Assembly: GCA_023265625.1 (NCBI GenBank)
Contig: JAHFST010000003.1
Location: forward strand, 168,482 to 232,481
Direction of reading: 5' to 3'
DNA: 64,000 nucleotides
From: Deltaproteobacteria bacterium
GTDB lineage: Bacteria > UBA10199 > JACPAL01 > JAHFST01
Position 1 is the stretch's first letter. The number at the start of each line of letters is the position of its first letter. The notes beneath the pieces are model-generated. The model was not told the origin of the DNA, searched no databases, and saw only the letters and a program-made list of their open reading frames with translations. The translations under genes and the position numbers were made by a program. This document shows, in pieces, positions 1,283 through 57,693 of the stretch.

Positions 1283-1288
1283 GGGGCT

Positions 1289-1591
1289 TTGCTTATGACA
1301 GCGACGACACCGGATTTTTTATGGTTGTTCATCCGGATGGTTATTGGATTGGTTGTTGTCCTGGGGCTGGCGCTCTTGCTGATTCGTTATGTGTTGCCCA
1401 AGGCTCGTTGGGGCAAGAATAGCAAAACAGGCTGGGCTGGGGTGATCGGGCGCGTCATGCTGGAGCCGCGCAAAGGGCTCTACCTGGTGAAGATTGTCGG
1501 GCGCTATTTTGTCTTGGGTTCCACCGATCAAAATCTTTCTTTGATTTCAGAATTGACCCAGGAAGAAGGGGAAAAAATTGAGAATACGTAA
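1289..1591 (+). CDS. FliO-like small single-pass membrane protein
   Basis: 100 aa, one hydrophobic segment (LWLFIRMVIGLVVVLGLALLLI), lies between fliN and fliP as in flagellar operons. Confidence 0.4.
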   Translation: MLMTATTPDFLWLFIRMVIGLVVVLGLALLLIRYVLPKARWGKNSKTGWAGVIGRVMLEPRKGLYLVKIVGRYFVLGSTDQNLSLISELTQEEGEKIENT

Positions 1592-2351: not shown

Positions 2352-2355
2352 TTTT

Positions 2356-2383
2356 GTAGGGGCGTATTGCGATACGCCCCTAC
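2356..2383. repeat. REP family 1 palindrome GTAGGGGCGTATTGCGATACGCCCCTAC (fliP-fliQ intergenic)
   Basis: Perfect 11-bp stem; the same unit recurs at 3494, 21181, 57657 with variant loops. Confidence 0.8.
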
Positions 2384-2398
2384 AGGGGATCAAAATTT

Positions 2399-2665
2399 AT
2401 GGAAGCCTATTTAGTCTCAATCGCCAAACAGGCCCTCTACCTAACGCTGATCCTGAGCGCTCCTCCGGTGGTGGCCTCGATGACTGTCGGGTTGATGGTC
2501 AGTTTATTTCAAGCCACGACCCAGGTTCAGGAGCAGACGCTGACTTTTGTACCAAAACTTGTTGCCGTGATCGTGACCTTGGCCCTGTTGGGACCGTGGG
2601 TGATGATTCAGATGGTGAATTTTACCAACTCGCTGTTTGATTCGTTTCCGTTGTACGTGAAATAA
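2399..2665 (+). CDS. fliQ: Export gate protein FliQ (SctS family)
   Basis: 88 aa, two TM helices, LYLTLILSAPPVVASMTVGLMVSLFQATTQVQEQTLTFVPKL typical of FliQ/YscS. Confidence 0.85.
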   Translation: MEAYLVSIAKQALYLTLILSAPPVVASMTVGLMVSLFQATTQVQEQTLTFVPKLVAVIVTLALLGPWVMIQMVNFTNSLFDSFPLYVK

Positions 2666-2675
2666 TCACACAACC

Positions 2676-3497
2676 ATGCAACAAACCCTTGCTTCAATTG
2701 GCATCAACATTGACTGGTCCTTCAGCCTGACGGTGGGGGGCTTGATCATGACCCGTCTGGTCTTGATGGTGGCCACGATGCCATTTTTAGTCGGGAAGCC
2801 CGTCCCGGCACAGGTCAAGATGGGACTGATACTCGCCCTGTTGCTTTTTTTATACCCTTATCTCGCCCCGGAAAACAAAGCGGCCCTGCCTCGTGAGCCG
2901 CTCACTCTTTTTATGCTGTTTCTCAAGGAGGCCGGCATCGGTTTGACGATTGGCATGGCCGCCGCCATTGTGTTTCACGGCTTTCAGGCGGCGGGGAGCG
3001 TGGTGGACAACCAACGCGGGGCGGCCCAGGCCCGTCTGCTGATCCCGTCCTTGGGCGAGCAGGCCTCCATCTTTGGTAATTTTGAATATCAGTTGGGGTT
3101 GGTGGTGTTTCTTTGTCTGGATGGCCATGTGATGTTTTTGAAGGCCATCATCGATAGCTATGATTATTTGCCGCTGCTCAGTTTTCCCGCGGGACGGACG
3201 GATATGATCGACATGGTGGGCTTTTTTATCCAGTTGACCGGTCAGGTTTTGCTGCTGTCCGTGCAATTGGCGGCCCCGGTCCTAATCTCCATTTTTATTG
3301 CGGACATGGTGTTGGGGATCGTGAGTAAGACGGCCCCCTCGGTGAATGTCTGGGAATTGAGCTTTGCGGTCAAGGGCGTGGTGGGGGTTTTGGTGGTGTT
3401 TCTCTCGATCGGTTTGATCGTGACCCAGATGGAAAAATTGTCGTTGGGGATGGTGACGGATGTAACGCGGCTTTTGCGGTTGATCGCAACGCCGTAG
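2676..3497 (+). CDS. fliR: Export gate protein FliR (SctT family)
   Basis: 273 aa polytopic membrane protein; position after fliQ; FliR-like hydrophobic profile. Confidence 0.8.
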   Translation: MQQTLASIGINIDWSFSLTVGGLIMTRLVLMVATMPFLVGKPVPAQVKMGLILALLLFLYPYLAPENKAALPREPLTLFMLFLKEAGIGLTIGMAAAIVFHGFQAAGSVVDNQRGAAQARLLIPSLGEQASIFGNFEYQLGLVVFLCLDGHVMFLKAIIDSYDYLPLLSFPAGRTDMIDMVGFFIQLTGQVLLLSVQLAAPVLISIFIADMVLGIVSKTAPSVNVWELSFAVKGVVGVLVVFLSIGLIVTQMEKLSLGMVTDVTRLLRLIATP

Positions 3498-3521
3498 GGG
3501 CGTATTGCAATACGCCCCTAC
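3494..3521. repeat. REP family 1 palindrome GTAGGGGCGTATTGCAATACGCCCCTAC; its TAG is the fliR stop codon
   Basis: Sequence directly visible; overlaps the fliR stop at 3495-3497. Confidence 0.8.
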
Positions 3522-3530
3522 AGGACCGGC

Positions 3531-5288
3531 GTGACTTCCCTTTTATTTTGTTTTACATCCCTCCCTATGTTTCCACCACAAGCGCGTGAAAATTGGCGTC
3601 CCATTTTGTTGCTGTTTCTCATCTGTCTCCTGACGCGTCTCCCCAGTCTTTACACACCGATCATCGACATCGATGAGTCCATCTTTGCGATCTGTGGCGA
3701 AACGATTCGGCAAGGGGGCAAGCTCTACCTGGATTGCGCGGATCACCAGCCTCCGGGGATCTATTGGATGTTCGGGACGATTTTTTCCCTGTTTGGCGCC
3801 AACAATATGTTGGCCGTGCATGCGTTGACCCTCTTGATCGTTTTCTTCACGGCCTTGGCGTTGTGGTGGATTTTGGGGGGGCGCGCCGGATTTTGGTCAG
3901 CCCTGTTTTACGTCTTGTTCAGCACCACCCATATCCCAAAATATATCTCGACTAATATTGAGATCATCGCGAATCTTCCGTTGGTGTTGGCATTTGGCCT
4001 CGTCTTGCAGGTGCGTCCTAAATGGATGGATCTCCGTCATCTCTTGGCCGGCGCCTTGGCGGCGGTGGCCGTGCTGTTAAAATATCAGGTGCTCATCTTA
4101 TTGGGCCCCGTTGTGTTATTTCTCCTCATGACCCCGCGCCGTTTTTTCCTGCTCCTCACGGGCGGCGTGTTGGCGACGGGCGGGGCGATGCTCCTGTTGC
4201 ATTGGAACGGCACCCTCACGGCCTTCTACACCGAGACGCTGGTGCGCGGCTGGAACTACGCCACCCTGGGCGGGGCGACCATCTCCTTTTGGAAAAATTT
4301 GGTCACACGGATGGGGTTGACGGTGGGATTTTTCTCGTGGCTCTGGTGGTTTGCCGGACGGGGGATTGTTGACGGTTTCCGTGCCTGCCCGGAATGGGCG
4401 GCCACGGGGGGCCGCCCCTACAGGCCCTGGATCATTCTCCTGTGGCTGCTCGGAAGTTTTCTCGCGGTCCTGGCCGGGGCGCGTTTTTATCCGCACTATT
4501 TTATCTTGATGTTGCCGCCGCTGTGTTTGTTGGCGGGGGCACCAGCGGCCCATTTTTGGCGTCGCAGTGAAGCCCCGCCTGTAACGGCAGAGGTGATCCC
4601 TGGAGGGACCGAGGACCTGTCCGACGTAGCCATTGGTAAATCAATTTTCTCCCGAGGGAGCGGGGGCAGGGGCCCTGCGACCGGAGGGTCATGGAGACAG
4701 TGGGGCGAGGAGTTCCGCAGGGCCCGGAAGGGATTACCTCTGCCGTTACACTCGGCTTACTTTTTGATGTTGATCTTATGGGGGGTATTTTTTTTGCTAC
4801 CTAGAGTAAATTTTCAACGCAGCTATCAATGGTTCTACCAAAATCACGCCAACCTCGATGCCGGTACGGAGCCCATGTTGCATGAAGATGTCTATCGGTC
4901 TGTTGGGGAGTATATCGAGCAGCATTCGGTTCCCAGTGATCGCATCGTCGTCTGGGGTTTTTCGACCCCGATCTACTTTTTTGCCAACCGACTTTCCGCC
5001 TCACGCGAGATCTGGTCCGATGACCTGACCGGCCGTGTCCCCGGTTCGCCCCGGGCCTGGCAGGCTGATTTTGACACCACCCCCTACATCCGCCCAGGCA
5101 GCTGGCAAAGCTTCCTCCAAGAGTTGCAACAAAACCGCCCCCTCTGGTTCGTCGATACCGCCACCGCCAGCCTCAATTACTACGGCAAATACCCCATCCA
5201 AAAATACCCCCCCCTGTGGGAGTTTCTGCAGGCACACTACGCCCCAGAGCTCACTATCTCTGGTGTGCAGCTGTATCGGTTAAAATAA
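3531..5288 (+). CDS. GT-C family membrane glycosyltransferase (ArnT/PMT-like, GT39/GT83-type)
   Basis: Many TM helices; N-terminal DIDESIFAICGETIRQGGKLY...DHQPPGIYWMFG resembles the ArnT/PMT_2 catalytic loop; 585 aa. Confidence 0.55.
   Translation: MTSLLFCFTSLPMFPPQARENWRPILLLFLICLLTRLPSLYTPIIDIDESIFAICGETIRQGGKLYLDCADHQPPGIYWMFGTIFSLFGANNMLAVHALTLLIVFFTALALWWILGGRAGFWSALFYVLFSTTHIPKYISTNIEIIANLPLVLAFGLVLQVRPKWMDLRHLLAGALAAVAVLLKYQVLILLGPVVLFLLMTPRRFFLLLTGGVLATGGAMLLLHWNGTLTAFYTETLVRGWNYATLGGATISFWKNLVTRMGLTVGFFSWLWWFAGRGIVDGFRACPEWAATGGRPYRPWIILLWLLGSFLAVLAGARFYPHYFILMLPPLCLLAGAPAAHFWRRSEAPPVTAEVIPGGTEDLSDVAIGKSIFSRGSGGRGPATGGSWRQWGEEFRRARKGLPLPLHSAYFLMLILWGVFFLLPRVNFQRSYQWFYQNHANLDAGTEPMLHEDVYRSVGEYIEQHSVPSDRIVVWGFSTPIYFFANRLSASREIWSDDLTGRVPGSPRAWQADFDTTPYIRPGSWQSFLQELQQNRPLWFVDTATASLNYYGKYPIQKYPPLWEFLQAHYAPELTISGVQLYRLK
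4578..4750. mobile_element. MITE-like insertion with about 22-bp terminal inverted repeats, in-frame inside the glycosyltransferase gene
   Basis: Left end CCTGTAACGGCAGAGGTGATCCC (4578-4600); right end GGGATTACCTCTGCCGTTACA (4730-4750) is its reverse complement with one or two mismatches; internal GC-rich hairpins. Confidence 0.5.
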
Positions 5289-11873: not shown

Positions 11874-12665
11874 ATGAGTTTCCTGGTTATGACCCTGCCA
11901 AAAGACATCATGATTGACAATCCCGGACTCGGAGCATGGTCGATCCTCGTTGCCTACCGCGGATCGATCGCCCATGGGATGTTTGTTCCCAGTACGGATC
12001 CTCACTCTATTGATGACAGGGATGTCATGGCCGTTTGCATCCCGCCCGTCGATTACTATTTTGGACTCAAAGAGTTCGGTTCGCGAGGGACTCAGGAAAT
12101 CAAGAAGGGGGAATGGGATATCGTCGTTTATGAGATCAAGAAATTCATCCGACTCCTGGCGAAAGGGAATCCCAATGTCCTGTCAATGCTCTGGCTCAAA
12201 CCAGATCACTACCTCAAATTGACGGAGATCGGCCGTCGTCTGATTGATCACAAACATTTATTTGTTGGGAGGCATGTTTACCACAGCTTTTCCGGATATG
12301 CCCAATCTCAGCTCCACCGGATGACGCATATGGCCTTTCAAGGTTACATGGGTGAGAAGAGAAAGAGACTTGTGCAAAAGTTCGGTTATGACACTAAGAA
12401 TGCCGCCCATCTGATCCGGCTCCTCCGGATGGCCGTTGAATTTCTCGCGGAAGGGGTCCTCCATGTGGAAAGAGAAGATGCTCCCCAGCTTTTGGAAATC
12501 AAGCGCGGAGAGTGGAAGTTGGAGCAAGTGAAAACCGAAGCTGAACGGTTGTTTATGCTTGTTCAAGAAGCTTATATCCAGTCTGCGCTTCCGCTGGAAC
12601 CGGATATGGAGAAAATCAACAAGCTTTGTGTGGAAATGATAGAAATGAGAGCGGAATTTTTCTAG
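11874..12665 (+). CDS. Predicted nucleotidyltransferase (Pol-beta superfamily, RlaP/PF10127-like)
   Basis: RGSIAHGMFVPSTDPHSIDDRDV fits GS-x(n)-D-x-D; 263 aa. Confidence 0.45.
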   Translation: MSFLVMTLPKDIMIDNPGLGAWSILVAYRGSIAHGMFVPSTDPHSIDDRDVMAVCIPPVDYYFGLKEFGSRGTQEIKKGEWDIVVYEIKKFIRLLAKGNPNVLSMLWLKPDHYLKLTEIGRRLIDHKHLFVGRHVYHSFSGYAQSQLHRMTHMAFQGYMGEKRKRLVQKFGYDTKNAAHLIRLLRMAVEFLAEGVLHVEREDAPQLLEIKRGEWKLEQVKTEAERLFMLVQEAYIQSALPLEPDMEKINKLCVEMIEMRAEFF

Positions 12666-12717
12666 AAAAACCTCGAGCTTCTTGCCTTCCTGACACGATT
12701 TGATATGCTGAAGATCC

Positions 12718-13113
12718 ATGACGGTTCAGGACCTACAACAACTATTGGCTTATTGGCGTGAAGGTTCTGATTATGATTGGGGAACCGCTCAATCCCTATT
12801 GCGAGCGAAGCGCTATCCCTATGCCCTGTTTATGGGGCATCTTTCGTTGGAAAAATTGCTCAAGGGTTTGATCGTGAAAGAGACGAGAGACCACGCCCCG
12901 TTTACACACAATCTGGCCTATCTGGCGGGTAAGTTGCCCTTTGAATTCTCCAAAGAGCGGATCGTCTTTTTGGAGGAGATCAATAGTTTCAATATTGAGG
13001 CGCGTTATCCGGATGAAAAAAGGGAGTTGTACAAGCGGGCCACCAAAGAATTTACCAGGCGGATGATGAAAGAAATAGGGCTGGTGCGATTATGGCTGAT
13101 AAAAAAATATTAA
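12718..13113 (+). CDS. HEPN domain protein (toxin partner of the downstream MNT)
   Basis: 131 aa; ...NIEARYPDEKRELY... is the conserved HEPN R-x(4-6)-H-like region; 22-nt overlap with the MNT gene. Confidence 0.65.
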   Translation: MTVQDLQQLLAYWREGSDYDWGTAQSLLRAKRYPYALFMGHLSLEKLLKGLIVKETRDHAPFTHNLAYLAGKLPFEFSKERIVFLEEINSFNIEARYPDEKRELYKRATKEFTRRMMKEIGLVRLWLIKKY

Positions 13114-13409: not shown

Positions 13410-14561
13410 TTACACAATCTTTTTCACCCTACCACAGAGTTGCTGGAGAAATACCTCGACCGGGAGACAGAGGATTTCTTTTTGCAACAGGCGTTCTTGT
13501 CCTCGGTAGAGCAAGATGGCTTGGCATTCCGGGTATTCTTGTCGAAATGAGGTGAGCCCCCTGAGATCCTCCGGACGGACGCGCGGGGTGCTCTTGACTT
13601 CTATCGCCCAAAAAATATCGTTGCCATAGATGACAAAATCAACCTCCGTTTGGGCTTGAGTTCGCCAAAAGTACAGTTGATGATCGTCCGCAAAATAAGC
13701 CAGCCAGGCACGTAACTGTTGTGCGACTAGTCCTTCGAGGGCGGCCCCTTCAATCATGCCGGGTCGGTCGAGGGGGCCATGGGGGCGCAGCGATTGATAG
13801 ACACCGGTGTCGAAAAGATAAAATTTGGAGTGGGAGATCACGGCACGCTGACTCCTCTTCGCAAACACCGGTACGCGAAAGGCGAGCAGGAGATCTTCTA
13901 AAATGGTGATATAATTTGTCACCACCTTTCTTTCGACCTCGCATTCCCGGGCGACGTTATTGATATTGAGCACTTCTCCGTGTGAAAAACTGATGGCCTC
14001 GAGGAAGCGTGAAAAGTTTCCCACGTTTCTGACCAAGCCCTCCATTTGAACATCTTCACGCACGTAGAGGGCGACGTAACTCTTCAAAACCTCCGCTGGT
14101 TCGGGGGCGGCCATGACGATTGGGAGTAGTCCGGTTTGTAAAGCTTGTGTTAGCTGAAATTGGGCGCCTAACTCAGCGGCGGCGAAGGGGTGGAGCGTTT
14201 TTAACAGGGCTCGCCCCGCCAACAGATCGACCCCCGTTTTTTTAAGTTTTCGTGCGCTCGACCCGGTTAAGATGAATTTCAACCCCCGTTTTTCTTCAAT
14301 GAGTTGATGAACCACGTCGAGCAGTGCTGGGACCTTCTGAACTTCGTCAATGAGGATGACTTGTTCCGATTGGCCGAATATCGCTTCGCGGAGCCGTTCC
14401 GGTCTGGCGCTGTAGACCCGGTCCGTCTCAGGATCCAGGAGGTCAATGCGGAGGGCCGTAGGAAATTGGTATCGCACCCAGGTCGATTTGCCACTCCCCC
14501 GTGGGCCAAACAAAAAGAAGCTCATCTTCGGATCTTGTAAAAAACGATGTATTGATTCCAT
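13410..14561 (-). CDS. AAA+ ATPase of the AAA_14/DUF4143 family
   Basis: Walker A FGPRGSGKST, Walker B ILIDEVQ, then a long DUF4143-like C-terminal region; 383 aa. Confidence 0.8.
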   Translation of the reverse strand: MESIHRFLQDPKMSFFLFGPRGSGKSTWVRYQFPTALRIDLLDPETDRVYSARPERLREAIFGQSEQVILIDEVQKVPALLDVVHQLIEEKRGLKFILTGSSARKLKKTGVDLLAGRALLKTLHPFAAAELGAQFQLTQALQTGLLPIVMAAPEPAEVLKSYVALYVREDVQMEGLVRNVGNFSRFLEAISFSHGEVLNINNVARECEVERKVVTNYITILEDLLLAFRVPVFAKRSQRAVISHSKFYLFDTGVYQSLRPHGPLDRPGMIEGAALEGLVAQQLRAWLAYFADDHQLYFWRTQAQTEVDFVIYGNDIFWAIEVKSTPRVRPEDLRGLTSFRQEYPECQAILLYRGQERLLQKEILCLPVEVFLQQLCGRVKKIV

Positions 14562-20643: not shown

Positions 20644-23079
20644 ATGGGGGATCCTAATCCAACGACGGTTGTATCCAATACACGTACCTGCTCACCGCCT
20701 TACGTGTGTGAGGTCGAGGGCGATTTTGGCTTCACCGGAATTGATTCAGGTCCGGTCCTGACTCAGCCGCTTGATACCGGTGACCAAGTGGTGCCACCGC
20801 CGCCTCGCGTGGCATCAACCCCGCCTGCCGCCGTCAAACTTTGGGGTGAGACCGAGGCCTTAACCGAACCATTTTTGCAGGACATGCGCACGAAGATCGC
20901 CAGGGTCCCGGCGGAACAAGGTCCATTTTTTCCGTGGTTTCGTGCCGATGACCGAAAACTTCAGGTGGGGAAAAGTTACTCATTTGCGTCCTATTTTTCT
21001 TCACTTCCGGAGCATTTCCAACTCCTGTTTGCGAAGGTGAAGGATCTCCCCGGGGTGGTTTTTTCTCCCCAGTATTTGTTGATCGATGGGAAACAGGTCC
21101 CGGTGGTTTATGTCTCGCAGGTTCGGGTGGAGGATAATCCGTTTGGGATTGATCCGTTGTTAAATCAATTGCCGGGCGCGGTAGGGGCGTATCGCAATAC
21201 GCCCGTACAGGATGCCGCGTTGTTGCCGCCGGAGGCGCAGGTTATTCGGAATTTAGGGGGCTATCCTATCGGGGTCGTAATGGCCCCGGAAATTGCGCGG
21301 GTGATGTACACGGCAGATGAATTGGTGGTTGCAAAACATGACTCTGATTTTCCCGTGCCACAAGATTTATTCCCTGTAGGGGCGCCGCTTGCTGCGCCCC
21401 CTTTCTCGGCAACCCTTTCTTTAGGTTCAATACCCAAAGTTCACGCCCCCCGCTTCGAGGCGGCGGCCGATCTGGGAAGCAATTTCACACCGGCTGGTTG
21501 GGGTTACCTGGCCGATGCCAATGATCTTCCTGCCTACTATTCCTTGATGCATGGCGAAGCAGAGGTTTTCTCAGCAGAAGGGTCCGCAAATCTTTCAGTC
21601 AATACGGCATTTGTCGGGGGGATTACGATCGAAGCGCGTGGCATTCGTTCTGCGGGCGCTTTTTTGGCACGATCGAGTCGTGTCCTGGCCCCGTTTCTTA
21701 AGCTGGCGGGCCGCACCCTTGGGATTGCCACCATGGGGGGTGTCCCTGATATCCCCTTCGATGTGGGATTGGCTGTTTATGAACCGGGTGATCCTAACGA
21801 ACGTCTCTGGCTCCTGGTGGAACAAAATCGAGACGCGGCGTTGGGCTTTGGTTCCTTCCTGATCCCGGTCAAATGGTTGGATACGATGAAGCGCAATTCC
21901 GATGAGAGCGATGAACAGAGTCACGTTCGCGTCATCCAATCAACAGCAGATGGGTATGTGATGGATACCGACCAACTCGGTGAGGTCTTGGACGAGTCAT
22001 TGGAAAAGATGTTTATGGCGGAGCTTCTCGCTTCGGGAAAAATTGACTTTCAATTGTTGGAGGATGGCGGGCTGAAAAAAATTGTCCCGAATGAAGGAAA
22101 ATTTAGGCTGGACATGATGGATGTCCGGCGTGGAACTTGGAATCTATTTTCTTCGGATAAAAGGATCCATCAAAGTGTTGCCGCACTTTACGAACTTCTT
22201 GAGTTTACCGGGTTTAGGGCAAAGCGCGGGGAGGCGGTCAAGGAGTTGCTCAATTCCAATGGAGAACCTTATCACCCGACCCACTTTCGAGCCTATTGCC
22301 TGGCCAAGATCAGCGAATGGAAGCGGCAGGCCCAGGAATCACTCAAGAGGGAATTAGTGAGCGTTGGTTTGGGGGGATACGATGTGACTGGAAAGTTTGT
22401 TAATTATTACGGCACACTCAATCATTACACGCCCGCGCAACAGTCCCTGATCGACAAAGAGGAACAGGTCAAGCCAGCCTATCAGTCTGGGGTGAAAATT
22501 GCCTCAGCGTCAAACCCACAGGGCTCTTGGACCCTTCGCATCCGCATGCTTGATATCATGCAGCGTACCCTCATTTTTGCAGAACAGCATTCGGAAACAG
22601 CGGATGCTCAATTGGAGGCCCTGGCACCCGCGGATCGTCACGCGGTTGATCAGGCCCTCGGACAATTGCGGAGGGATCCATTAAAAGGGGATAGTCGATT
22701 GTATACCCCTTGGAGCCCTGAAGATCAGGCGGAGAAAACAACGTTGATTCGTGACATCGCTCGGGGACTGACTCAGAATGAGCTGGATCTCCCTCTCCCC
22801 TTTGATTGGCAGCGCCAATACAAAATGGCGAGAACCACCAGCGCGTCTTTTGGCGACATCTCCGCAGCCTATATGTCTCAAGGAGGCTCCAACCCCCTGC
22901 AAGCCGAGAAAAAAGCCCGGGCCCACGAAGCATTGGACTCGGCCCAACGCTACGTCTGGAAGGATCGCAGCCTGACTGTGGACAATAAATTTCGCATTGA
23001 TTATTCCCTCGATGGAGACGCCTCGCCGCAGGGTGGTGGGGAAGGTAGCATCGTTATTCGACAGATTGTGAAATTGTAA
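20644..23079 (+). CDS. Large hypothetical protein I (811 aa)
   Basis: Long ORF starting MGDPNPTT...; contains an in-frame REP (21181-21208, encoding VGAYRNTPVQ). Confidence 0.5.
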   Translation: MGDPNPTTVVSNTRTCSPPYVCEVEGDFGFTGIDSGPVLTQPLDTGDQVVPPPPRVASTPPAAVKLWGETEALTEPFLQDMRTKIARVPAEQGPFFPWFRADDRKLQVGKSYSFASYFSSLPEHFQLLFAKVKDLPGVVFSPQYLLIDGKQVPVVYVSQVRVEDNPFGIDPLLNQLPGAVGAYRNTPVQDAALLPPEAQVIRNLGGYPIGVVMAPEIARVMYTADELVVAKHDSDFPVPQDLFPVGAPLAAPPFSATLSLGSIPKVHAPRFEAAADLGSNFTPAGWGYLADANDLPAYYSLMHGEAEVFSAEGSANLSVNTAFVGGITIEARGIRSAGAFLARSSRVLAPFLKLAGRTLGIATMGGVPDIPFDVGLAVYEPGDPNERLWLLVEQNRDAALGFGSFLIPVKWLDTMKRNSDESDEQSHVRVIQSTADGYVMDTDQLGEVLDESLEKMFMAELLASGKIDFQLLEDGGLKKIVPNEGKFRLDMMDVRRGTWNLFSSDKRIHQSVAALYELLEFTGFRAKRGEAVKELLNSNGEPYHPTHFRAYCLAKISEWKRQAQESLKRELVSVGLGGYDVTGKFVNYYGTLNHYTPAQQSLIDKEEQVKPAYQSGVKIASASNPQGSWTLRIRMLDIMQRTLIFAEQHSETADAQLEALAPADRHAVDQALGQLRRDPLKGDSRLYTPWSPEDQAEKTTLIRDIARGLTQNELDLPLPFDWQRQYKMARTTSASFGDISAAYMSQGGSNPLQAEKKARAHEALDSAQRYVWKDRSLTVDNKFRIDYSLDGDASPQGGGEGSIVIRQIVKL
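21181..21208. repeat. REP family 1 palindrome GTAGGGGCGTATCGCAATACGCCCGTAC inside the coding sequence of protein I
   Basis: Same unit as 2356 and 3494 with two substitutions; in frame. Confidence 0.7.
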
Positions 23080-26752: not shown

Positions 26753-27907
26753 TTAGCCTCCGGTAATTTTGGTCCAATGTTTGTGTTGCAGTGGGTCTGA
26801 CAACGCGGGGCGTTCACTCGGAGTGACGGCCAACAGGGTGACTTTTTTATCGGAAAGGTCTTGAAAACGGAGCAGATTGCGCACGTGGTCCAAGGTCACG
26901 GTATGGGTTAGTTTGATTTCGATGGCCTGGAGGTGTTCCCCCTGGTCGACCAGCAGATCCACTTCCAGGCCGTCATGGGATCGCCAAAAGTAGAGCGGTG
27001 CTTGGCGAGCCTGGTTGAGGTGGGCCTTGCGAAATTCCTGAATGATGAAATTCTCAAAGAGAGGTCCGGCCATCGGTCCCGAGATGAGGGTTTCCGGTGA
27101 TCTGATCTTTAAAAGGTGGCAGGCCAGGCCGGTGTCCACAAAATAGATCTTGGGCGAGCGGACGACCCGTTTGCCAAAATTTTGAAAGTAGGGTGGCAGT
27201 AGATAAATGACAAAGGCGGCTTCCAGTGCGGAAATCCACTCCTTGATCGTGGGCGATTTTACCCCCACTTCTGCGGCCAGTTTATGCATGTTGAGTTCCT
27301 GCCCGATACGGGCCGCCAACAGCTGCAGGAGGGCCTCAAAGCTGCGCAGATCCCGGATGGCGATTTGCGAGCGGAGGTCTCGCTCCAGGTAGGTGTTGAT
27401 GTAGGAGGAAAACCAGAGATCCAGGTTCAAATCGGGCGTGGTTTGCAGCTGTGGGTACATGCCGCGCAACAAGAGGTTGGCGAGATCCGGTTGTGTGTGC
27501 GGGGCGATTTCCGGCCAAGAGAAGGGGAGCAACTGAAAGATGGCGACCCGGCCCGAGAGGCTTTCCGTGACCCCCTGCATCAGATGAAACTGATGGGAAC
27601 CGGTGAGCACGACCTGGCCGGGGGTCTTATTACGGTCGACGAATTCCTTGACGTAAGGCAGCAGCCCCGGGGCTTCTTGGATTTCGTCGATGAGCAACCC
27701 GGGAGCCGAGTCGACAAAAAAAGCACGCGGATCCCGCTCCGCCCGCTGTCGCACATCCAGGGCATCCAGCGTGACATAGCGGTGGTGAGGGAAGGTGTGG
27801 CGGAGTAACTCCGTCTTACCAGTCTGCCTGGGACCAGTCGCCAACAGGACGGGGAAGTGCCGGCTGGCCTCTTTGATAGGATCTGACAGATTTCTTTTCC
27901 AATACAT
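26753..27907 (-). CDS. AAA+ ATPase of the AAA_14/DUF4143 family (second copy)
   Basis: Walker A LATGPRQTGKTEL, Walker B LLIDEIQ, DUF4143-like C-terminal region; 384 aa. Confidence 0.8.
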   Translation of the reverse strand: MYWKRNLSDPIKEASRHFPVLLATGPRQTGKTELLRHTFPHHRYVTLDALDVRQRAERDPRAFFVDSAPGLLIDEIQEAPGLLPYVKEFVDRNKTPGQVVLTGSHQFHLMQGVTESLSGRVAIFQLLPFSWPEIAPHTQPDLANLLLRGMYPQLQTTPDLNLDLWFSSYINTYLERDLRSQIAIRDLRSFEALLQLLAARIGQELNMHKLAAEVGVKSPTIKEWISALEAAFVIYLLPPYFQNFGKRVVRSPKIYFVDTGLACHLLKIRSPETLISGPMAGPLFENFIIQEFRKAHLNQARQAPLYFWRSHDGLEVDLLVDQGEHLQAIEIKLTHTVTLDHVRNLLRFQDLSDKKVTLLAVTPSERPALSDPLQHKHWTKITGG

Positions 27908-31326: not shown

Positions 31327-31776
31327 ATGGACAAAAAAGAAAAAATCGAGAACAGTACTCAGGCTGAAGCCGATCACTACAATGGGATCTTGCTTGAGGA
31401 TATGCGGTCGCAGATACAGTTGGTCATAGAAAAGGTCATGGGTTCTGAGGAGTCGTTAAGAGGCGAGATGCAGTTGATGCGGACCGATTTTGAGGGACGA
31501 TTCCAAGGGCTTGAAGCCTTGATCAAGATGAATTCTGACGATATCAAGACAAATTCTGAGGAAATTCATGGACATAGCAAGATACTCGCATCACATAGTA
31601 AGATACTCGAATCGCATAGCAAGATACTTGCATCACATAGCACGGTACTCGAATCACATACTAAAACCCTTGACGAGCATAGCCGGAGCCTAGATCGCAT
31701 TGAGACCAAGTTGGACCGTCTGGTGGACAAGGTCGAAAAGCATGACCAGGCCCTCCATCAGATGGGTGCCCTGTAG
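31327..31776 (+). CDS. Small coiled-coil protein with tandem heptad repeats (HSKILAS/HSKILES x5)
   Basis: 149 aa; encoded by 21-bp tandem repeats at 31573-31677. Confidence 0.45.
   Translation: MDKKEKIENSTQAEADHYNGILLEDMRSQIQLVIEKVMGSEESLRGEMQLMRTDFEGRFQGLEALIKMNSDDIKTNSEEIHGHSKILASHSKILESHSKILASHSTVLESHTKTLDEHSRSLDRIETKLDRLVDKVEKHDQALHQMGAL
31573..31677 (+). repeat. Five tandem 21-bp repeats (CATAGCAAGATACTCGCATCA-like)
   Basis: Direct inspection: catagcaagatactcgcatca / catagtaagatactcgaatcg / catagcaagatacttgcatca / catagcacggtactcgaatca / catactaaaacccttgacgag. Confidence 0.8.
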
Positions 31777-31796
31777 GGGCGACCCGGTGGGTCGCC
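31774..31796. repeat. Partial REP family 1 unit GTAGGGGCGACCCGGTGGGTCGCC; its TAG is the stop codon of 31327..31776
   Basis: Left arm GTAGGGGC plus the inner palindrome GCGACCC-GGTGGGTCGC; right arm incomplete. Confidence 0.5.
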
Positions 31797-42077: not shown

Positions 42078-42106
42078 GTAGGGGCAACCCTCCGTGGTTG
42101 CCCTCC
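42078..42106. repeat. REP family 1 variant GTAGGGGCAACCCTCCGTGGTTGCCC (3' of yggT)
   Basis: GTAGGGGC arm plus the inner palindrome GCAACC-GGTTGC. Confidence 0.5.
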
Positions 42107-43271: not shown

Positions 43272-44021
43272 TTAAAGACGATTGCCAAAAATCCCGGTAC
43301 CGATCCTCACCAGGGTTGATCCCTCCTCAATCGCCACCTGATAGTCGTGAGTCATCCCCATGGAGAGCTCGGTGAGGGGAAGCTTATACACCCTCTTATT
43401 ATTAATTGCATCACGAATCTCACGGAGATGCTTAAAGTGAGGGCGTGCCGCCTCGGGATCGCTGGCTGGGGGCGGCATTCCCATGAGGCCTGTTAACTCC
43501 AGGTGGGTGAGGGGGGATAGTGCCCTGATGAGTGGATCCAGCGCTGCGAGGGCAATCCCACTCTTGGTGGCCTCTCCCAAATTGACCTCAATCAGGATGG
43601 GTTGGATTTTTCCCAGTTTGGCGGCTTGGTGGTTGATTTCTTCGGCAAGGCGCAGTGAGTCGACCGAATGAATCAAGGACACCTTGTCGATGATTTGTTT
43701 GACCTTATTGCGTTGCAGGTGGCCGATGAAATGCCATGTTGTTTCCTGTAGGGGCACCCCTCCGTGGGTGCCCTCTGCTTGGGTGCCCTCACGGGCCGGG
43801 CGGCCACACAGGGCCGCCCCTACGTGTTCCAATAATTCCTGGGCGTAGTTCTCGCCAAAATCCCTCTGACCTGCCTGCCAGGCTTCTTCTATCCTTGTGG
43901 TCGGTTGCCCCTTCGTGACGGCAATGAGGGTCACATGGGGGGGGATCTGTTGCCGAAGCTGCGATAATTTCTCGAAAATCGTCATTTCATTCTCTATAAT
44001 TGTTTTTTTCAATAATTTCAT
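43272..44021 (-). CDS. yggS: YggS-family pyridoxal-phosphate homeostasis protein (alanine-racemase-fold PLP-binding)
   Basis: VTLIAVTKGQP (PLP lysine), WHFIGHLQRNK, SMGMTHDYQVAIEEGSTLVRIGTGIFG; carries an extra 25 aa encoded by a REP insertion. Confidence 0.85.
   Translation of the reverse strand: MKLLKKTIIENEMTIFEKLSQLRQQIPPHVTLIAVTKGQPTTRIEEAWQAGQRDFGENYAQELLEHVGAALCGRPAREGTQAEGTHGGVPLQETTWHFIGHLQRNKVKQIIDKVSLIHSVDSLRLAEEINHQAAKLGKIQPILIEVNLGEATKSGIALAALDPLIRALSPLTHLELTGLMGMPPPASDPEAARPHFKHLREIRDAINNKRVYKLPLTELSMGMTHDYQVAIEEGSTLVRIGTGIFGNRL
43748..43823. repeat. Compound REP family 1 element (GTAGGGGCACCCCTCCGTGGGTGCCC...GGGCCGGGCGGCCACACAGGGCCGCCCCTAC) inserted in-frame in yggS
   Basis: Bounded by GTAGGGG and CCCCTAC; the encoded segment GAALCGRPAREGTQAEGTHGGVPLQ has no counterpart between the ENYAQEL and WHFIG motifs of canonical YggS. 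Confidence 0.7.
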
Positions 44022-44030
44022 GTATTTTCA

Positions 44031-44552
44031 ATGTTAGCCATGAAGCTTTCTCTTGCGGTGTGCAGTTTAATCATCCTATCGGGTTGTTTTGGTCGCGACT
44101 ATCGAGGCGGCATCATGCGCTACGAAATGGGGCGGGCCTATACCGGGACCCGCTCTTTTGCCATTCAGTCCCCACCAAAGCCTTGGAAAGGTCCAAAACT
44201 GAAATACAAGGAAATGGTTTACACCCATGATGGTATCGGTGGGACCATCGTGACCGACGCCCTCTGTGGCCCCAAGTTTGAGGATACCCCGGTCGTGTTA
44301 TTAGCCAAGCATCTCTTCTATAAGCTCGATCATGCCCAGATCAAGCCCGCCAGGTATTTTACGTTGGATGGACGGGAAGCGGTGCGAGTGGATGGCACGG
44401 GGAGCATGGATGGTGTCCCCTTGCAGATGCAGGTGGTGGTGATGAAGAAAAACTTCTGTCTCTATGATTTTGTCTATTTTGCCCCGCCCAAGAGCTTTGC
44501 GGCCGGGCGGAAAGATTTTGAAAATTATTATCAGAGTCTTGAGGCCCCCTGA
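44031..44552 (+). CDS. Putative lipoprotein
   Basis: Signal peptide with lipobox LSGC; 173 aa. Confidence 0.5.
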   Translation: MLAMKLSLAVCSLIILSGCFGRDYRGGIMRYEMGRAYTGTRSFAIQSPPKPWKGPKLKYKEMVYTHDGIGGTIVTDALCGPKFEDTPVVLLAKHLFYKLDHAQIKPARYFTLDGREAVRVDGTGSMDGVPLQMQVVVMKKNFCLYDFVYFAPPKSFAAGRKDFENYYQSLEAP

Positions 44553-49131: not shown

Positions 49132-50256
49132 ATGTTCGTGAAGATTGACAGCGATCATTCAAGATTTAAACAGATCATCCGTGGAAAAATCAAAAAAGAA
49201 TTAAGGAAGTTTATTACCCATGGGGAAATGATTGGGCGTCAGGGGAAGGACCTGGTCAGTATCCCTTTGCCCCAGATTGACATGCCTCACTTTGTTTACG
49301 GACCGCGTCAGATGGGCGGCGTGGGACAGGGAGAGGGGAAGCCTGGGACAGTGATTGGCGCCGGGGAGATCGAGGGAGACGGTTCCGGTCAGGCGGGTAA
49401 TGAAGAAGGGGATCATGTCTTAGAGACCGAGCTGACGGTTGCCGAGTTGGTGGAACTCATGGGGGAGGAACTCGAATTGCCCCGCATCCAACCCAAGGGT
49501 GATTCCAATCTTAATTCCGAGAAGGAGAAATATACGGGTATTGGCATGTCCGGCCCGGAATCGTTGCGTCATTTCAAGCGAACCTACCGTCAGGCGCTCC
49601 GGCGCCAGATCATCGCGGGGAGTTATGATCCGAAACACCCCCGCATTGTGCCGATGCGGGAGGATAGGCGTTACCGGGTATCTCGCAAGGAGGTTCGACC
49701 GGAGCAAGAGGCCGTGATCATCTACATGATGGATGTGTCCGGATCGATGGGGGCGGAGCAAAAAGAGATTGTGAGGATGGAGACCTTCTGGATTGATACC
49801 TGGATCCGCGCGCACTACAAGGGGTTGCAGGCCCGTTACATTGTGCATGATGCCGTGGCGCGCGAGGTGGATCGGGATACTTTTTACAAGACCCGCGAGT
49901 CAGGTGGGACCATCATTTCCTCGGCCTATAAGCTTTGTTTAGACCTCATTCATAAACATTATCCCCCGTCCGATTGGAATATTTATGCCTTTCATTTCTC
50001 CGATGGCGACAATTGGTCGGGCAACGATACCCAGGAATGTCTGAAGCTATTGCAGGATGAGCTTTTGCCCATAGTGAACCTCTTTGGTTACGGCCAGGTG
50101 GAGAGCGAGTATGGCAGTGGGCAATTTCTCCGTGATTTAAGCGAGAAATTCTATCGCGAGGGTGGAGCTACGCATGAATCGTTGGTTGTTTCCAAGATCG
50201 CGTCACGCGACGCCATCTATGATTCCATCAAGGATTTTTTAGGGAAGGGGAGATAA
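49132..50256 (+). CDS. DUF444 protein (YeaH/YhbH family, vWA-like)
   Basis: Conserved middle gene of the prkA-yhbH-spoVR triad; 374 aa. Confidence 0.8.
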
Positions 50257-50259
50257 TCG

Positions 50260-51738
50260 ATGTCCTTGTCACCTGAATTAATCAAATGGCGTAACCACAT
50301 ACGGGAGATTGCGCTTGGCTACGGGCTCGATTTCTTCGAGGTCATCTTCGAGGTGCTCGATTGGAAACAGATGAATGTCGTGGCCTCTTACGGAGGATTT
50401 CCCAACCGTTACCCCCACTGGCGTTTTGGGATGGAGTACGAGCAGATCAGCAAGAGCTACGCCTACGGCCTGACGAAGATTTATGAAATGGTCATTAACA
50501 ACGATCCTTCCTACGCGTATTTGCTGCATTCCAACGCCTTGATGGATCAAAAGTTGGTGATGGCCCACGTGTACGGGCATTCGGATTTTTTTAAGAATAA
50601 CTTTTACTTCAGCCATACCAACCGCAAGATGATCGATGTGATGGGAAATCATCGTTCGAAGGTGCAACGCTATATTGACGAATATGGGTTGGATAAGGTT
50701 GAGGCATTCATCGATCAGTGTTTGTCTTTGGAGAACCTCATTGATTACCACAGCCCTGCCATCAAGAGACAACGCTTTCATGAAGATGAAGTGTTGGGTG
50801 AGGAAAAAGACACTAAGGTTTCTGTCAAGAAAATGAAGAGCAAAGAGTACATGGATACCTTTGTCAATCCCAGTGATTTTCTGGCGGCGCAACAAAAGAT
50901 GATCGAAGAGGCCAAGAAGAAGGAAAAGTCATTTCCCGAACACCATGAACGCGACGTGCTATTATTTTTGATCAACTATGCCCCCTTGGAGCGGTGGCAA
51001 AGGGATGTGCTCACGATGATCCGCGATGAGGCCTATTATTTTGCCCCGCAGCGGCAAACGAAGATCATGAACGAAGGTTGGGCCGCTTATTGGCATACCA
51101 CTATGATGACGCAAAAAATTTTGGACGATACCGAGGTGATTGATTATGCCGATCACCACTCTGGCACCGTGGCGCCGCATCCGGGGCGTGTCAATCCTTA
51201 CAAGCTCGGGATGGAGTTGTTTCGTGACATTGAAGATCGTTGGAACAAGGGTAAGTTTGGCAAGGAGTTTGAAGACTGTACAGACTTCAAGGAGAAGAGA
51301 GTTTGGGACAAAAAACTAGGGCAGGGACGGGATAAAATTTTTGAAGTCCGCAAACTCTACAACGACCTGACATTTCTCGATGCCTTTCTCAACGATGAAT
51401 TTTGCGTCCAGCAGAAGATGTTCACCTATGCCTACAACCCCAACAACAATACCTATGAGATTGTCGATCGTGATTGGCGGAAGGTAAAGGCCAAACTGTT
51501 ACAGTCCCTGACCAATTGTGGTAGCCCGATTATTGAAATTGTCGACGGGAATTACAACAATCGGGGGGAGATGCTGCTCAAACATCATTTTGACGGGGCG
51601 ACTCTCAAGATGGATTGGGCCTGGGAGACCTTGAAGAATCTCCAGTCTTTGTGGGATCGTCCGGTTTATCTTGAGACGATGGTGGAAGGCATTCCGAAGG
51701 TCCTAAGTTTTGACGGCAAGGAAACCCACGAAAAGTAG
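50260..51738 (+). CDS. spoVR: SpoVR family protein
   Basis: 492 aa; third gene of the prkA triad. Confidence 0.85.
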   Translation: MSLSPELIKWRNHIREIALGYGLDFFEVIFEVLDWKQMNVVASYGGFPNRYPHWRFGMEYEQISKSYAYGLTKIYEMVINNDPSYAYLLHSNALMDQKLVMAHVYGHSDFFKNNFYFSHTNRKMIDVMGNHRSKVQRYIDEYGLDKVEAFIDQCLSLENLIDYHSPAIKRQRFHEDEVLGEEKDTKVSVKKMKSKEYMDTFVNPSDFLAAQQKMIEEAKKKEKSFPEHHERDVLLFLINYAPLERWQRDVLTMIRDEAYYFAPQRQTKIMNEGWAAYWHTTMMTQKILDDTEVIDYADHHSGTVAPHPGRVNPYKLGMELFRDIEDRWNKGKFGKEFEDCTDFKEKRVWDKKLGQGRDKIFEVRKLYNDLTFLDAFLNDEFCVQQKMFTYAYNPNNNTYEIVDRDWRKVKAKLLQSLTNCGSPIIEIVDGNYNNRGEMLLKHHFDGATLKMDWAWETLKNLQSLWDRPVYLETMVEGIPKVLSFDGKETHEK

Positions 51739-52513
51739 GGGCGATCCTTGTGATCGCCCCCAGGATTGCGAGATGCAGCGATAACCCGCAGGCCAGGAGT
51801 TTCCATTCTTTAAGATAGGCCGTGATCATAAAATTAAACCCTAAAATCCCCCAATAGAATAACGGGCCCAACCACGGTAGGGGTACGGGGCGCCGTGCCT
51901 GTGTAGGTTGCGATAGCCAGGAATAAACTCCAATGATTGACAGAGCGACTAGAAACCAACCGGTAAAATTGCTGAGTGGCACTCCAAAATAGGTCCCACC
52001 GTTTGGGTAGTAAAAGATATCCCCCAAGAACCATCGGTCCCCACGAACCGCCAATGGATCAACGACGATGTCGAGGGCGGTCATGAGGAGGGCGGCCAAA
52101 AAAATCCTCCCCCTCATCCTAACCTTCTCCCCAAGGGGGAGAAGGGACTCCCTCTCCCTTTTGGGGAGAGGGCCGGGGTGAGGGGGAGCCAACCACCCCC
52201 CATATTCATAGGCTGCGTAGGCCAAAAACGAATAGGACAGCGAATCCCACAAAGGAACTCCCCAGAGCAGCAACTCCCCTGGAAGATTTTCATAACGATA
52301 GTGATACAACCCATAGGGAAAGGCCCAGCGAATTGAGGTGAATTCCGAGAGGTAGGCGATGCCGAACCCCAGGGTCAAAAAAAGAAAAGTATTTTTAAGG
52401 CCGCGATTAACAATGCCAATAGTGAGGAACGCACCCAGGAAAACAAAAATGTAAGGACGATGCATCAATGTGTACAACAGCGCAGGCCAGGAAAGGAGGG
52501 TTGGCATCGACAT
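51605..52513 (-). CDS. Polytopic membrane protein (possibly DUF422/carotenoid-biosynthesis-like), containing an in-frame REP family 2 insertion
   Basis: Multiple TM helices; the C-terminal 45 codons overlap spoVR convergently and span a REP, so the true 3' end is uncertain. Confidence 0.45.
   Translation of the reverse strand: MSMPTLLSWPALLYTLMHRPYIFVFLGAFLTIGIVNRGLKNTFLFLTLGFGIAYLSEFTSIRWAFPYGLYHYRYENLPGELLLWGVPLWDSLSYSFLAYAAYEYGGWLAPPHPGPLPKRERESLLPLGEKVRMRGRIFLAALLMTALDIVVDPLAVRGDRWFLGDIFYYPNGGTYFGVPLSNFTGWFLVALSIIGVYSWLSQPTQARRPVPLPWLGPLFYWGILGFNFMITAYLKEWKLLACGLSLHLAILGAITRIAPTFRGFPCRQNLGPSECLPPSSQDKPDDPTKTGDSSRSPRPNPS
51735..51764. repeat. REP family 1 variant GTAGGGGCGATCCTTGTGATCGCCCCCAGG; its TAG is the spoVR stop
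   Basis: GGGGCGATC...GATCGCCCC hairpin directly visible. Confidence 0.7.
52107..52188. repeat. REP family 2 compound palindrome (CCTCCCCCTCA...CTCCCCAAGGGGGAG...CTCTCCCTTTTGGGGAGAG...TGAGGGGGAG) in-frame within the membrane protein gene
   Basis: Encodes ...PHPGPLPKRERESLLPLGEKVRMRG... on the minus strand. Confidence 0.6.
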
Positions 52514-53576: not shown

Positions 53577-54574
53577 AGACGGAGTTTCTACTAGACATAG
53601 ACTAGTTTTATCGGATTTTTCCATTTTTGGTTTATATTTGATATCTAAGGGATGATCGAATGGTTGGCGATTGTGGTTTTTTTTGTTGTTAAAGAGGCAA
53701 ACGGAGCTGTTAAAGAGCGTAGATTCTAGATTAGGATGAGATGATGCACACGGATTCTTTGTTATAATGGGTTTTCTTGTTTTTCTCCGGTTAGCTTAAG
53801 TTCCGAACCTTTCTCTGTAACGTTGTCTCCAGGCGAAAAGCTGTTTTTGATGAATCTCTCGTAAGATCTTTGTTTTCTGGATGACCCAATCAGGATTCCC
53901 GATGAAAGGAGATGAGGAATAAGGTTGTTTCGTATGCCAGTCGTTTTGTAGAAGTTGATCAACAAGGTAGCGATATTCCATTTGGCGTTGTTCTGAGTTA
54001 GTTGCCAAGCCTAAGTAAGATGGAGCTGGGGTAATGAGAGGGTCTGCTTCTCCATAGGCGTAGTAACGGTAGGAAGAAAATTGGTTATGATTGGGGTGCT
54101 TGACCTTTCCGGCACGTTTCGGATTGAGGTCAATGTAACGCATGACTTCCAATAAATGCCTATCGGTTTGAATCATGGGTGATTTGAATCTATCCATGAC
54201 GACCTGACCCCGCCTTTTGACATGTTTGTTGTAGAGTCTAGCGAAGCGAGCATTGACCACTCTAAAAAAATCTGAAAAATCGCGTAATGAGTTCAGATGT
54301 CCTGAGAGATGAGGATGATTATCCATTAGGCAGTAGGAGTAGATTCGAACACCATAACGGTCTTTGTAGTGAAGCAGGAGGTTGTAATAAAGTTGTTTAG
54401 CCCAGGATTCCTTCAAGAGCCAATCTTGGTTGTGACATTGCCAAGTGACGTGGAAGCAAGAGTCATCTTCAAGAATGGCCGATCGAGGGAGTGAAGGCAT
54501 GAGTGAGACTAAAGCAAATTTCAGGCCAAAATAGACAAGACGAGAAATCAAGGGTTTAGCAATTTAAGACGGAG
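53575..54574 (-). mobile_element. IS200/IS605-like unit carrying a REP-associated tyrosine transposase, AT-rich, flanked by AAGACGGAG
   Basis: AAGACGGAG at 53575-53583 and 54566-54574; GC drops sharply in 53580-53800; hairpin CGTCCGAAAATCGGACG at the right end. Confidence 0.4.
53796..54551 (-). CDS. REP-associated tyrosine transposase (RAYT; IS200-like Y1 transposase)
   Basis: HuH motif ...YCLMDNHPHLSGHL... and upstream ...DSCFHVTWQCHN... are typical of TnpA_REP; 251 aa. Confidence 0.75.
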   Translation of the reverse strand: MISRLVYFGLKFALVSLMPSLPRSAILEDDSCFHVTWQCHNQDWLLKESWAKQLYYNLLLHYKDRYGVRIYSYCLMDNHPHLSGHLNSLRDFSDFFRVVNARFARLYNKHVKRRGQVVMDRFKSPMIQTDRHLLEVMRYIDLNPKRAGKVKHPNHNQFSSYRYYAYGEADPLITPAPSYLGLATNSEQRQMEYRYLVDQLLQNDWHTKQPYSSSPFIGNPDWVIQKTKILREIHQKQLFAWRQRYRERFGT

Positions 54575-54611
54575 CAAAGCGTCCGAAAATCGGACGGTAC
54601 CGACCGAAAAT

Positions 54612-54637
54612 CGAACCTTCGTCTTACGTCTTAAGAA
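54612..54637. repeat. Direct repeat CGAACCTTCGTCTTA(CGTCTTA)AGAA, copy 1 (second copy at 55985-56004), flanking gene 54640..55920
   Basis: A 15-bp exact core shared by both copies. Confidence 0.5.
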
Positions 54638-57417: not shown

Positions 57418-57660
57418 ATGGCAGAGAATTGCAAAGTTTCGGGATGTAAGCGGCCTTATCGGGCCAAAGGGTATTGCAATGTGCATTATCGGGGATGGCG
57501 TCAGGGCGAGTTGCCGCATCCGCGTTATAAGACTTGTTCCAAGGATGAATGTCGCAAGCCGGTGACCAAAAAAGGCCTTTGTGCGAACCATCTCAAAGAG
57601 GTTTATCCCAAATTGGCCCCGGCGGAGGCGTCCCCTGCTGCAGAGACCGCGGCCCTGTAG
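57418..57660 (+). CDS. Small Cys-rich protein (putative zinc ribbon), 80 aa
   Basis: CKVSGCKRPYRAKGYC and CSKDECRKPVTKKGLC give paired CxxC motifs. Confidence 0.4.
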   Translation: MAENCKVSGCKRPYRAKGYCNVHYRGWRQGELPHPRYKTCSKDECRKPVTKKGLCANHLKEVYPKLAPAEASPAAETAAL

Positions 57661-57693
57661 GGGCGTATTGCCATACGCCCCACATACGCCCCC
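57657..57693. repeat. REP family 1 variant GTAGGGGCGTATTGCCATACGCCCCACATACGCCCCC; its TAG is the stop of 57418..57660
   Basis: Left arm and loop identical to the 2356 and 3494 units. Confidence 0.7.

Follow-up and report, generated by a model that had tools for sequence, protein, structure and literature searches.

The closest described relatives of the element reported here are the GTAG-tagged repetitive extragenic palindromes (REPs), which Di Nocera, De Gregorio and Rocco (2013) described in eight phyla as 24 families, with sub-families that differ by complementary changes in their stems (PMC3733652). These are dispersed repeats with a stem of 5-13 bp and a loop of 2-20 nt, located mostly between or downstream of open reading frames (ORFs), whose TAG stop codons can be supplied by the GTAG; they frequently form head-to-head dimers, in which the GTAG ends lie on the outside. 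Some are found wholly within known genes, and over half of these inserts consist of dimers or groups and code for 20-30 amino acids. Intragenic examples are known from Opitutus terrae, from uvrA of Thioalkalivibrio and from recB of Xanthomonas, where two species have unlike REPs at nearly the same position. The present analysis concerns a palindrome of this kind in a 64,000-nt stretch of the genome of an uncultured deltaproteobacterium (assembly GCA_023265625.1, contig JAHFST010000003.1, positions 168,482 to 232,481; hereafter 'the window'), where it lies in frame within yggS, a gene for a pyridoxal 5'-phosphate (PLP) homeostasis protein that is absent from the supplementary lists of the same survey. 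Very probably the feature is a head-to-head pair of REPs that is translated as part of a functional yggS gene, in a loop that tolerates it.

The resemblance to the published repeats extends to the GTAG tag, the stem of 6-9 bp with alternative complementary residues, the arrangement of head-to-head dimers, whose partners abut or are separated by a short spacer, the donation of TAG codons and the inserts of 20-30 amino acids. As GTAG-tagged REPs, their intragenic dimers and their donation of stop codons have all been published, the phenomenon itself is already known. An earlier note on this DNA, which had reported the element, held such frame-preserving insertions to be rare; this cannot be maintained, given that in-frame single and dimeric GTAG REPs encoding 20-30 amino acids have been published from several phyla and that five ORFs in these 64 kb contain them. 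New are the host gene and its lineage, and the series of states at a single site is unusually rich: by contrast with the published survey, the host lineage is uncultured and the same-site pattern is seen over many lineages, in filled, empty and relic states. Rickettsia palindromic elements (RPEs), which also lie in frame within genes (Ogata et al. 2000, as cited in PMC3733652), are similar in behaviour only, being palindromic repeats in genes for functional proteins to which they add surface peptide segments; RPE-1 is much longer, RPE-4 and RPE-6 have the tag CGTC where the 26-nt unit of the window has GTAG, and both the repeat family and the host lifestyle are unrelated. The REPs and bacterial interspersed mosaic elements of Escherichia coli likewise comprise GTAG-type units in inverted pairs with an associated Y1 transposase (TnpA-REP, or REP-associated tyrosine transposase, RAYT), but they are extragenic, with longer bulged stems, and the element is untranslated.

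The compound palindrome in yggS spans 76 nt (43748-43823; full sequence GTAGGGGCACCCctccgtGGGTGCCCtctgcttGGGTGCCCtcacgggccGGGCGGCCacacagGGCCGCCCCTAC), begins GTAGGGGCACCCctccgtGGGTGCCC, finishes GGGCGGCCacacagGGCCGCCCCTAC and has GTAGGGGC at each end. A repeat finder identified outer arms of 26 nt that are 77% complementary, together with two perfect 8-bp inner hairpins (43752-43773 and 43798-43819). The whole is a head-to-head heterodimer of two GTAG-tagged REP units with their GTAG ends outward: unit A (43748-43773, plus strand, antisense to yggS) reads GTAG GGGCACCC ctccgt GGGTGCCC, and unit B (43798-43823, minus strand, sense to yggS) reads GTAG GGGCGGCC ctgtgt GGCCGCCC, the two matching a covariance model of the family with 33.3 and 32.6 bits respectively. 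The element is made up of a 26-nt unit, a 9-nt spacer, a 15-nt duplication and a second 26-nt unit. The duplication is tandem (direct repeat D1, 43757-43786, 80% identity, spacing 15) and is visible in the peptide as EGTQA/EGTHG; subtracting it leaves 26 + 9 + 26 = 61 nt, which equals the length of doublets found in two relatives (L171 and L169). The element probably measured about 61 nt at first, the 15-nt duplication being added later by slippage. The sense RNA folds into a single long hairpin of -51.5 kcal/mol (z = -3.48 against dinucleotide shuffles, of which one in 200 was as stable). Two inverted REPs with a short spacer that fold as one hairpin are also characteristic of the REPIN-RAYT system, in which REP doublets forming hairpins (REPINs) accompany a transposase (Bertels and Rainey 2011, PMC3116915); the difference is that the arms of the window element come from different sub-families. 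The yggS doublet is the equivalent of a REPIN-like doublet drawn from a GTAG-tagged family that is dispersed over the window.

That such a family exists in the window is evident from its 16 occurrences of GTAGGGGC, against 1.24 expected (a 13-fold excess reached in none of 100 shuffles). Defined by inspection, a hairpin scan and a covariance-model search, the family comprises 14 units at 12 loci in the window, and half of these loci (6/12) lie in ORFs. Each unit consists of the GTAG tag, GGGC, four variable bases, a loop of 3-6 nt, the complementary four bases and GCCC, giving a stem of 8 bp whose GGGC/GCCC base is invariant and whose four inner pairs vary with full compensation; the tag is GTAG in 23 of the 25 units aligned from the window and its relatives, and GCAG or GTTG in the other two. 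Across these 25 units 99% of stem cells are paired, compared with at most 52% in slid controls, a percentage that partly reflects ascertainment as the units were picked as hairpins. The four inner stem pairs show 45 double-sided changes against 11.7 in shuffles, none of 500 shuffles reaching 45. Both halves of the yggS element have siblings elsewhere in the window: unit A agrees at 24 of 26 positions with an intergenic copy adjoining yggT (42078-42103, plus strand), the two differences amounting to one compensated base pair, and the stem of unit B is identical to that of a copy at 4396-4421. Rfam gave no match in the whole window at gathering thresholds, nor in 43500-44100 at E<=1.

The host gene is intact. 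The yggS coding sequence (43272-43985, minus strand; COG0325/TIGR00044) encodes 237 amino acids, within an ORF spanning 43272-44021 of which M13 is the likely start, as in the database version of the protein. The product scores 174.5 bits against TIGR00044 (cutoff 106), also matches PF01168, and is matched by sequence to solved YggS/PipY structures with E-values down to 1e-41; K25, the PLP-binding lysine after strand 1, is invariant. The palindrome encodes V55-Q80 (VGAALCGRPAREGTQAEGTHGGVPLQ), flanked by ENYAQELLEH and ETTWHFIG, which confirms that it lies in frame within an intact YggS-family ORF, between the ENYAQEL and WHFIG motifs named by the earlier note. The additional 'about 25' residues given there are indeed extra relative to orthologues, but the net excess is 20, both against the closest orthologue and against the family consensus; orthologues free of REPs do not carry the same segment. 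The gene was also called 'essential-type', of which conservation can be upheld; yggS is not known to be essential in E. coli.

An AlphaFold2 model, built with an input of 35 clade sequences, has a mean pLDDT (predicted local distance difference test) of 92.2 and retains the YggS barrel, superposing on YggS/PipY crystal structures with a template-modelling (TM) score of 0.92 and a root-mean-square deviation of 1.9 A (Foldseek; 6kzw, 7ygf and 5nm8). Residues 60-82 are modelled as coil with a pLDDT of about 55, between a helix (48-59) and a strand (83-86). The insert is accordingly predicted to form a disordered loop of about 20 residues that joins helix alpha-2 to strand beta-3 outside the barrel core, in line with the surface loop that the earlier note had proposed to look for. 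In triosephosphate isomerase (TIM) barrels, the alpha-to-beta loops lie on the face opposite the catalytic, PLP-binding one. On this general topology the loop would face away from the PLP site, which suggests that the insert is close to neutral, and it is probably tolerated. The insert is presumably translated. An identical yggS allele, read at the DNA level, is present in four other independent assemblies; SRR14366769, SRR14366787, ERZ27280021 and ERZ27276474 are samples in which it occurs. A pseudogene, a split gene or an assembly artefact was considered and rejected, on the grounds of the intact ORF, the prevalence of synonymous differences, the confident model and the recurrence of the allele in those four assemblies.

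The closest differing orthologue (P0002, at locus L002) has 93.1% DNA identity, with 32 codons differing synonymously only and 9 non-synonymously, and lacks any counterpart to exactly 60 nt of the window (43754-43813), its product having 217 amino acids. Its loop, of canonical length, reads CAT, GTAGGGGCGG joined to CCCTACAG, GAA, encodes VGAALQ and keeps 16 nt of REP, in which the two ends are fused as GTAGGGGCGGCCCTAC (GTAGGGGCGG joined to CCCTAC). The boundaries of the gap are ambiguous by 4 nt because a CCCT direct repeat borders it. As L002 keeps both REP ends, the 60-nt difference is an indel inside a REP, and could represent either a gain in the window or a loss in L002; it might have arisen when the sequence between the ends was deleted or inserted with the help of the hairpin or of microhomology.

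The variation at this loop extends well beyond the nearest relative. Among 120 homologues listed, approximately 18 of some 50 clade proteins have loops of the type H-[VA]GA...P[LA][QTH]. The DNA of nine clade members was read, all of them syntenic (PrkA - Mla - yggS - proC - yggT), and in six of the nine REP palindromes with differing interiors occupy the same place in yggS in the same phase (GTA-GGG-GC). L006 has one unit; L167 a doublet whose first unit, GTAGGGGCGGCTctccgtGGCCGCCC, is homologous to unit B of the window; L168 a 46-nt doublet; L169 a perfect 28-nt palindrome; L170 a perfect palindrome with the tag GCAG; and L171 a 61-nt doublet. Counting L002 with these six, the tag directly follows an invariant His codon at five of the seven REP-bearing sites, as it does in the window; L168 and L169 have it three codons further on. 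The loops of L172, L173, L007, L087 and L088 are ordinary, with no trace of a tag. These states bear on the prediction in the earlier note of a lineage-specific insertion, which was correct in regarding the segment as REP-derived and extra but is too simple, as L002 keeps the fused ends and other REPs stand at the same codon in L006 and L167-L171. Among the approximately 150 more distant yggS loci in the matches listed, the loop is free of REPs except at L091, which has a palindrome of a different family, and scans of genome collections and metagenomes with YggS gave no further close orthologue among the matches listed. The L091 hairpin, PSPQPSPQGRGG, lies at 3702-3782 within the yggS loop of this unrelated locus and resembles a second palindromic family of the window (52123-52172, described below).

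One comparison points to the gain of a doublet. The REP-bearing P0026 (L171) is 88.8% identical to P0030 (L172), which is empty, and the outgroup P0028 (82% identical) is also empty, so that the L171 doublet is most simply a separate gain. This 61-nt doublet is nearly identical to an intergenic one in the proC-yggT spacer of another genome (L169:11555-11615), which suggests that the doublet moves as a unit. A doublet of conserved length at unrelated loci is a further likeness to REPINs, with the difference that the copies compared here come from different genomes. The same-site, different-interior pattern is not unique to yggS, being found also at the junction of DUF444 and spoVR, where the GTAG forms the DUF444 stop: full REPs with different stems are present in L169 (3593-3650) and L172 (3533-3590), L167 retains only GTAGGGGCG (3642-3660), and the window is without a REP (50250-50262).

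The units would be non-autonomous and would depend for their movement or renewal on a single-strand Y1 transposase of RAYT type, a candidate gene for which lies in the window. As for the yggS loop, REPs would either land there preferentially or have resided there for a long time, with repeated replacement of the hairpin. The candidate is a RAYT-like Y1 (HUH) transposase gene 10 kb from the yggS element (53796-54500, minus strand), whose product scores 29.3 bits against PF01797 (Y1_Tnp; cutoff 23) and carries HPH and YIDLNP motifs. Its homologues are widespread at 57-87% identity, some having been named REP-associated tyrosine transposase by the Joint Genome Institute (JGI), and an orthologue in L174 is 84% identical with its upstream neighbour retained. 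A single-copy, syntenic RAYT-like gene would be a point in common with the REPIN-RAYT system, although the gene here is not flanked by repeats. The search for terminal repeats around it gave only weak matches of 13-15 nt. The gene lies in a low-GC patch (39-44% against about 51%), and upstream of it (54575-54620) is a different double hairpin, GGTTCGATTTTCGGTCG / CGTCCGATTTTCGGACG, which is conserved in L174.

Several observations weigh against this account of a neutral, mobile repeat served by the candidate enzyme, in addition to the ascertainment in the pairing percentage. The candidate reaches 54.3 bits against NF047646, the REP-associated tyrosine transposase model, which is below the cutoff of 80. 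No GTAGGGGC unit is found within about 2 kb on either side of it, the nearest being at 51735 and 57657, and its L174 orthologue is likewise without flanking GTAGGGGC REPs; since the repeats do not flank the gene, the link between enzyme and REPs can only be inferred. In L171 the REP takes the place of seven native loop codons, which simple cut-and-paste insertion does not explain. Finally, near-perfect hairpins are found at one codon across orthologues that are only 55-60% identical, which could reflect selection instead of neutrality.

It is somewhat unlikely that one REP entered yggS long ago, in the ancestor of the clade, and has stayed there since, its interior diverging through compensatory substitution or REP-to-REP conversion. 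On this view the empty sites of L172, L173, L007 and others would be secondary losses, and L002 a partial one. In its favour, the window and L002, L006, L167, L170 and L171 agree in phase and in having the head immediately behind the invariant His codon, a homologous unit B is shared at the site by the window and L167, and relics consisting of heads alone do exist, in L002 yggS and at the L167 DUF444/spoVR junction. However, P0026 is the sole REP-bearer in a six-member subclade, which would require at least three clean losses in place of one gain, the empty sites of L172 and L173 have no remnant of a head, and in L168 and L169 the head is displaced three codons downstream; the neighbour-joining tree is poorly resolved.

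Selection on the hairpin for some role in yggS itself or in the yggS-proC-yggT transcript, which would make it more than neutral cargo, is improbable; candidate roles would include mRNA stabilisation, translational pausing or provision of a site for gyrase or a nucleoid protein. In E. coli, REPs affect the mRNA decay and translation of upstream genes, and selection would fit both the strong predicted RNA structure and the persistence of near-perfect hairpins at this position in lineages that are saturated at synonymous sites. Against this, the close sisters L172 and L173 have no hairpin at all and L002 has only 16 nt of one, yet all these genes are intact; the interiors and the architecture (single units, 46-, 61- and 76-nt doublets) vary; the same REP family is found in unrelated ORFs and spacers; and Rfam offers no corresponding structure. 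The weakest alternative, a local origin of the palindrome from native sequence of the yggS loop through slippage or duplication, with only a chance likeness to a REP, could draw on the 15-nt tandem duplication and on the variable loop length of the YggS family in general, but is effectively refuted by the near-identical siblings of both units (42078 and 4396), and has the 13-fold enrichment of the 8-mer head and the same architecture at unrelated loci in relatives against it as well.

The translated REP dimer in a permissive loop is thus the preferred reading, and provides a clean example of a protein whose length has been changed by a miniature mobile palindrome, in a widely conserved PLP-homeostasis host for which both a shorter, near-isogenic allele and a confidently modelled structure are available. 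With a single loop codon that holds different REPs in different members of the clade, and is empty or reduced to a relic in others, the turnover of REPs and their choice of targets become accessible to comparison. The states form a natural series, from empty (L172, L173) through heads only (L002 and the L167 junction) and single units to doublets of 46, 61 and 76 nt, which could serve to infer how REPs integrate. A rather doubtful extension, suggested tentatively, is that REPs use the yggS alpha2-beta3 loop and the DUF444/spoVR junction as 'docking sites': either a GTAGGGGC anchor stays in place or the native sequence is a repeated target, and the hairpin cargo is put in, exchanged or cut out. 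If true, a RAYT-type enzyme would have to insert or replace the hairpin site-specifically, anchored by the head, much as IS200/IS605 elements insert at specific targets.

Five ORFs of the window contain intragenic REPs, encoding a PMT_2 glycosyltransferase, protein I (two copies), protein T, YggS and the tail of a CruF-like protein. The earlier note's assignment of copies in proteins I and T to the same family, in frame, was borne out, and intragenic copies beyond its three were found at 21376-21399, 4396-4421 and 51735-51759. Protein I (ORF 20644-23079, plus strand; 811 amino acids, without a Pfam domain) has a near-symmetric 28-nt palindrome that encodes VGAYRNTPVQ (21181-21208) and a second unit, of 24.4 bits, that encodes PVGAPLAAPP (21376-21399, plus strand); no homologue other than itself was found among 5.8 billion proteins. 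In protein T (ORF 36153-37121) a 46-nt head-to-head dimer encodes VGAGYPRPGAETATLQ (36420-36465), and the claim that it too is an insertion is supported by alignment, as three orthologues, those of L169, L172 and L170, lack 12-14 amino acids exactly at GYPRPGAETATLQ. The glycosyltransferase copy (4396-4421, minus strand) is antisense and in frame in ORF 3531-5288, where it encodes WAATGGRPY. All four sense intragenic heads are read as GTA-GGG and the antisense singles are in other phases; no general phase rule was found for intragenic units beyond avoidance of the TAG frame.

Units of the family occur in three arrangements, as singles, as symmetric 28-nt palindromes with a tag on each strand (at 2356, 3494, 21181 and 35405) and as head-to-head dimers with the tags outside. 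The dimers comprise those of yggS and protein T in the window, those in yggS of L167, L168 and L171, and those at L169:11555-11615 and L174:8433-8480; this last, a 48-nt GTAGGGGC dimer directly after a ychF-type GTPase gene, shows that other genomes of this group have the family too. At four copies the GTAG donates the TAG stop of the upstream gene: a symmetric 28-nt REP (3494-3521) ends the Bac_export_1 (FliR-type) gene 2676-3497, and plus-strand units end ORF 31327-31776 (31773-31796), spoVR (51735-51759) and ORF 57418-57660 (57657-57680). The two remaining symmetric copies are intergenic, one of them 4 nt past fliP (2356-2383) and the other at 35405-35432. The region 9-3497 contains flagellar export and switch genes (FliM, FliN, FliP and FliR-type), with REPs at two gene boundaries. 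The SpoVR protein, with its stop from the REP at 51735, is 3 amino acids shorter than its orthologues. The same unit also lies within the extended tail of the convergent CruF-like ORF, which crosses the REP and runs on for 134 nt into spoVR in antisense (51605-51762) to give 302 amino acids against 248-273 in orthologues; the tail looks like either a REP-made C-terminal extension or an annotation trap. For annotation in this lineage, peptides of the VGA...PLQ type should be recognised as REP-encoded, and several stops and one C-terminal extension in the window as REP-made.

Other short palindromes are also present. A second family, CCCTCTCCC/GGGAGAGGG, forms three overlapping hairpins at 52123-52172, in frame in the CruF-like ORF (51605-52513, minus strand), where it encodes PLPKRERESLLPLGEK, a segment absent from the L172 orthologue. 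Intergenic hairpins CCCCCTCTTA...TAAGAGGGGG and TCCCCCTTTTTCAAAGGGGGA, at 35447-35500 and 37819-37882, may represent a further short palindromic repeat family. The window also contains a gene pair for an RlaP-type nucleotidyltransferase and a HEPN protein, and two genes for DUF4143/AAA_14 ATPases (11874-13113, 13410-14561 and 26753-27907, the last two on the minus strand).

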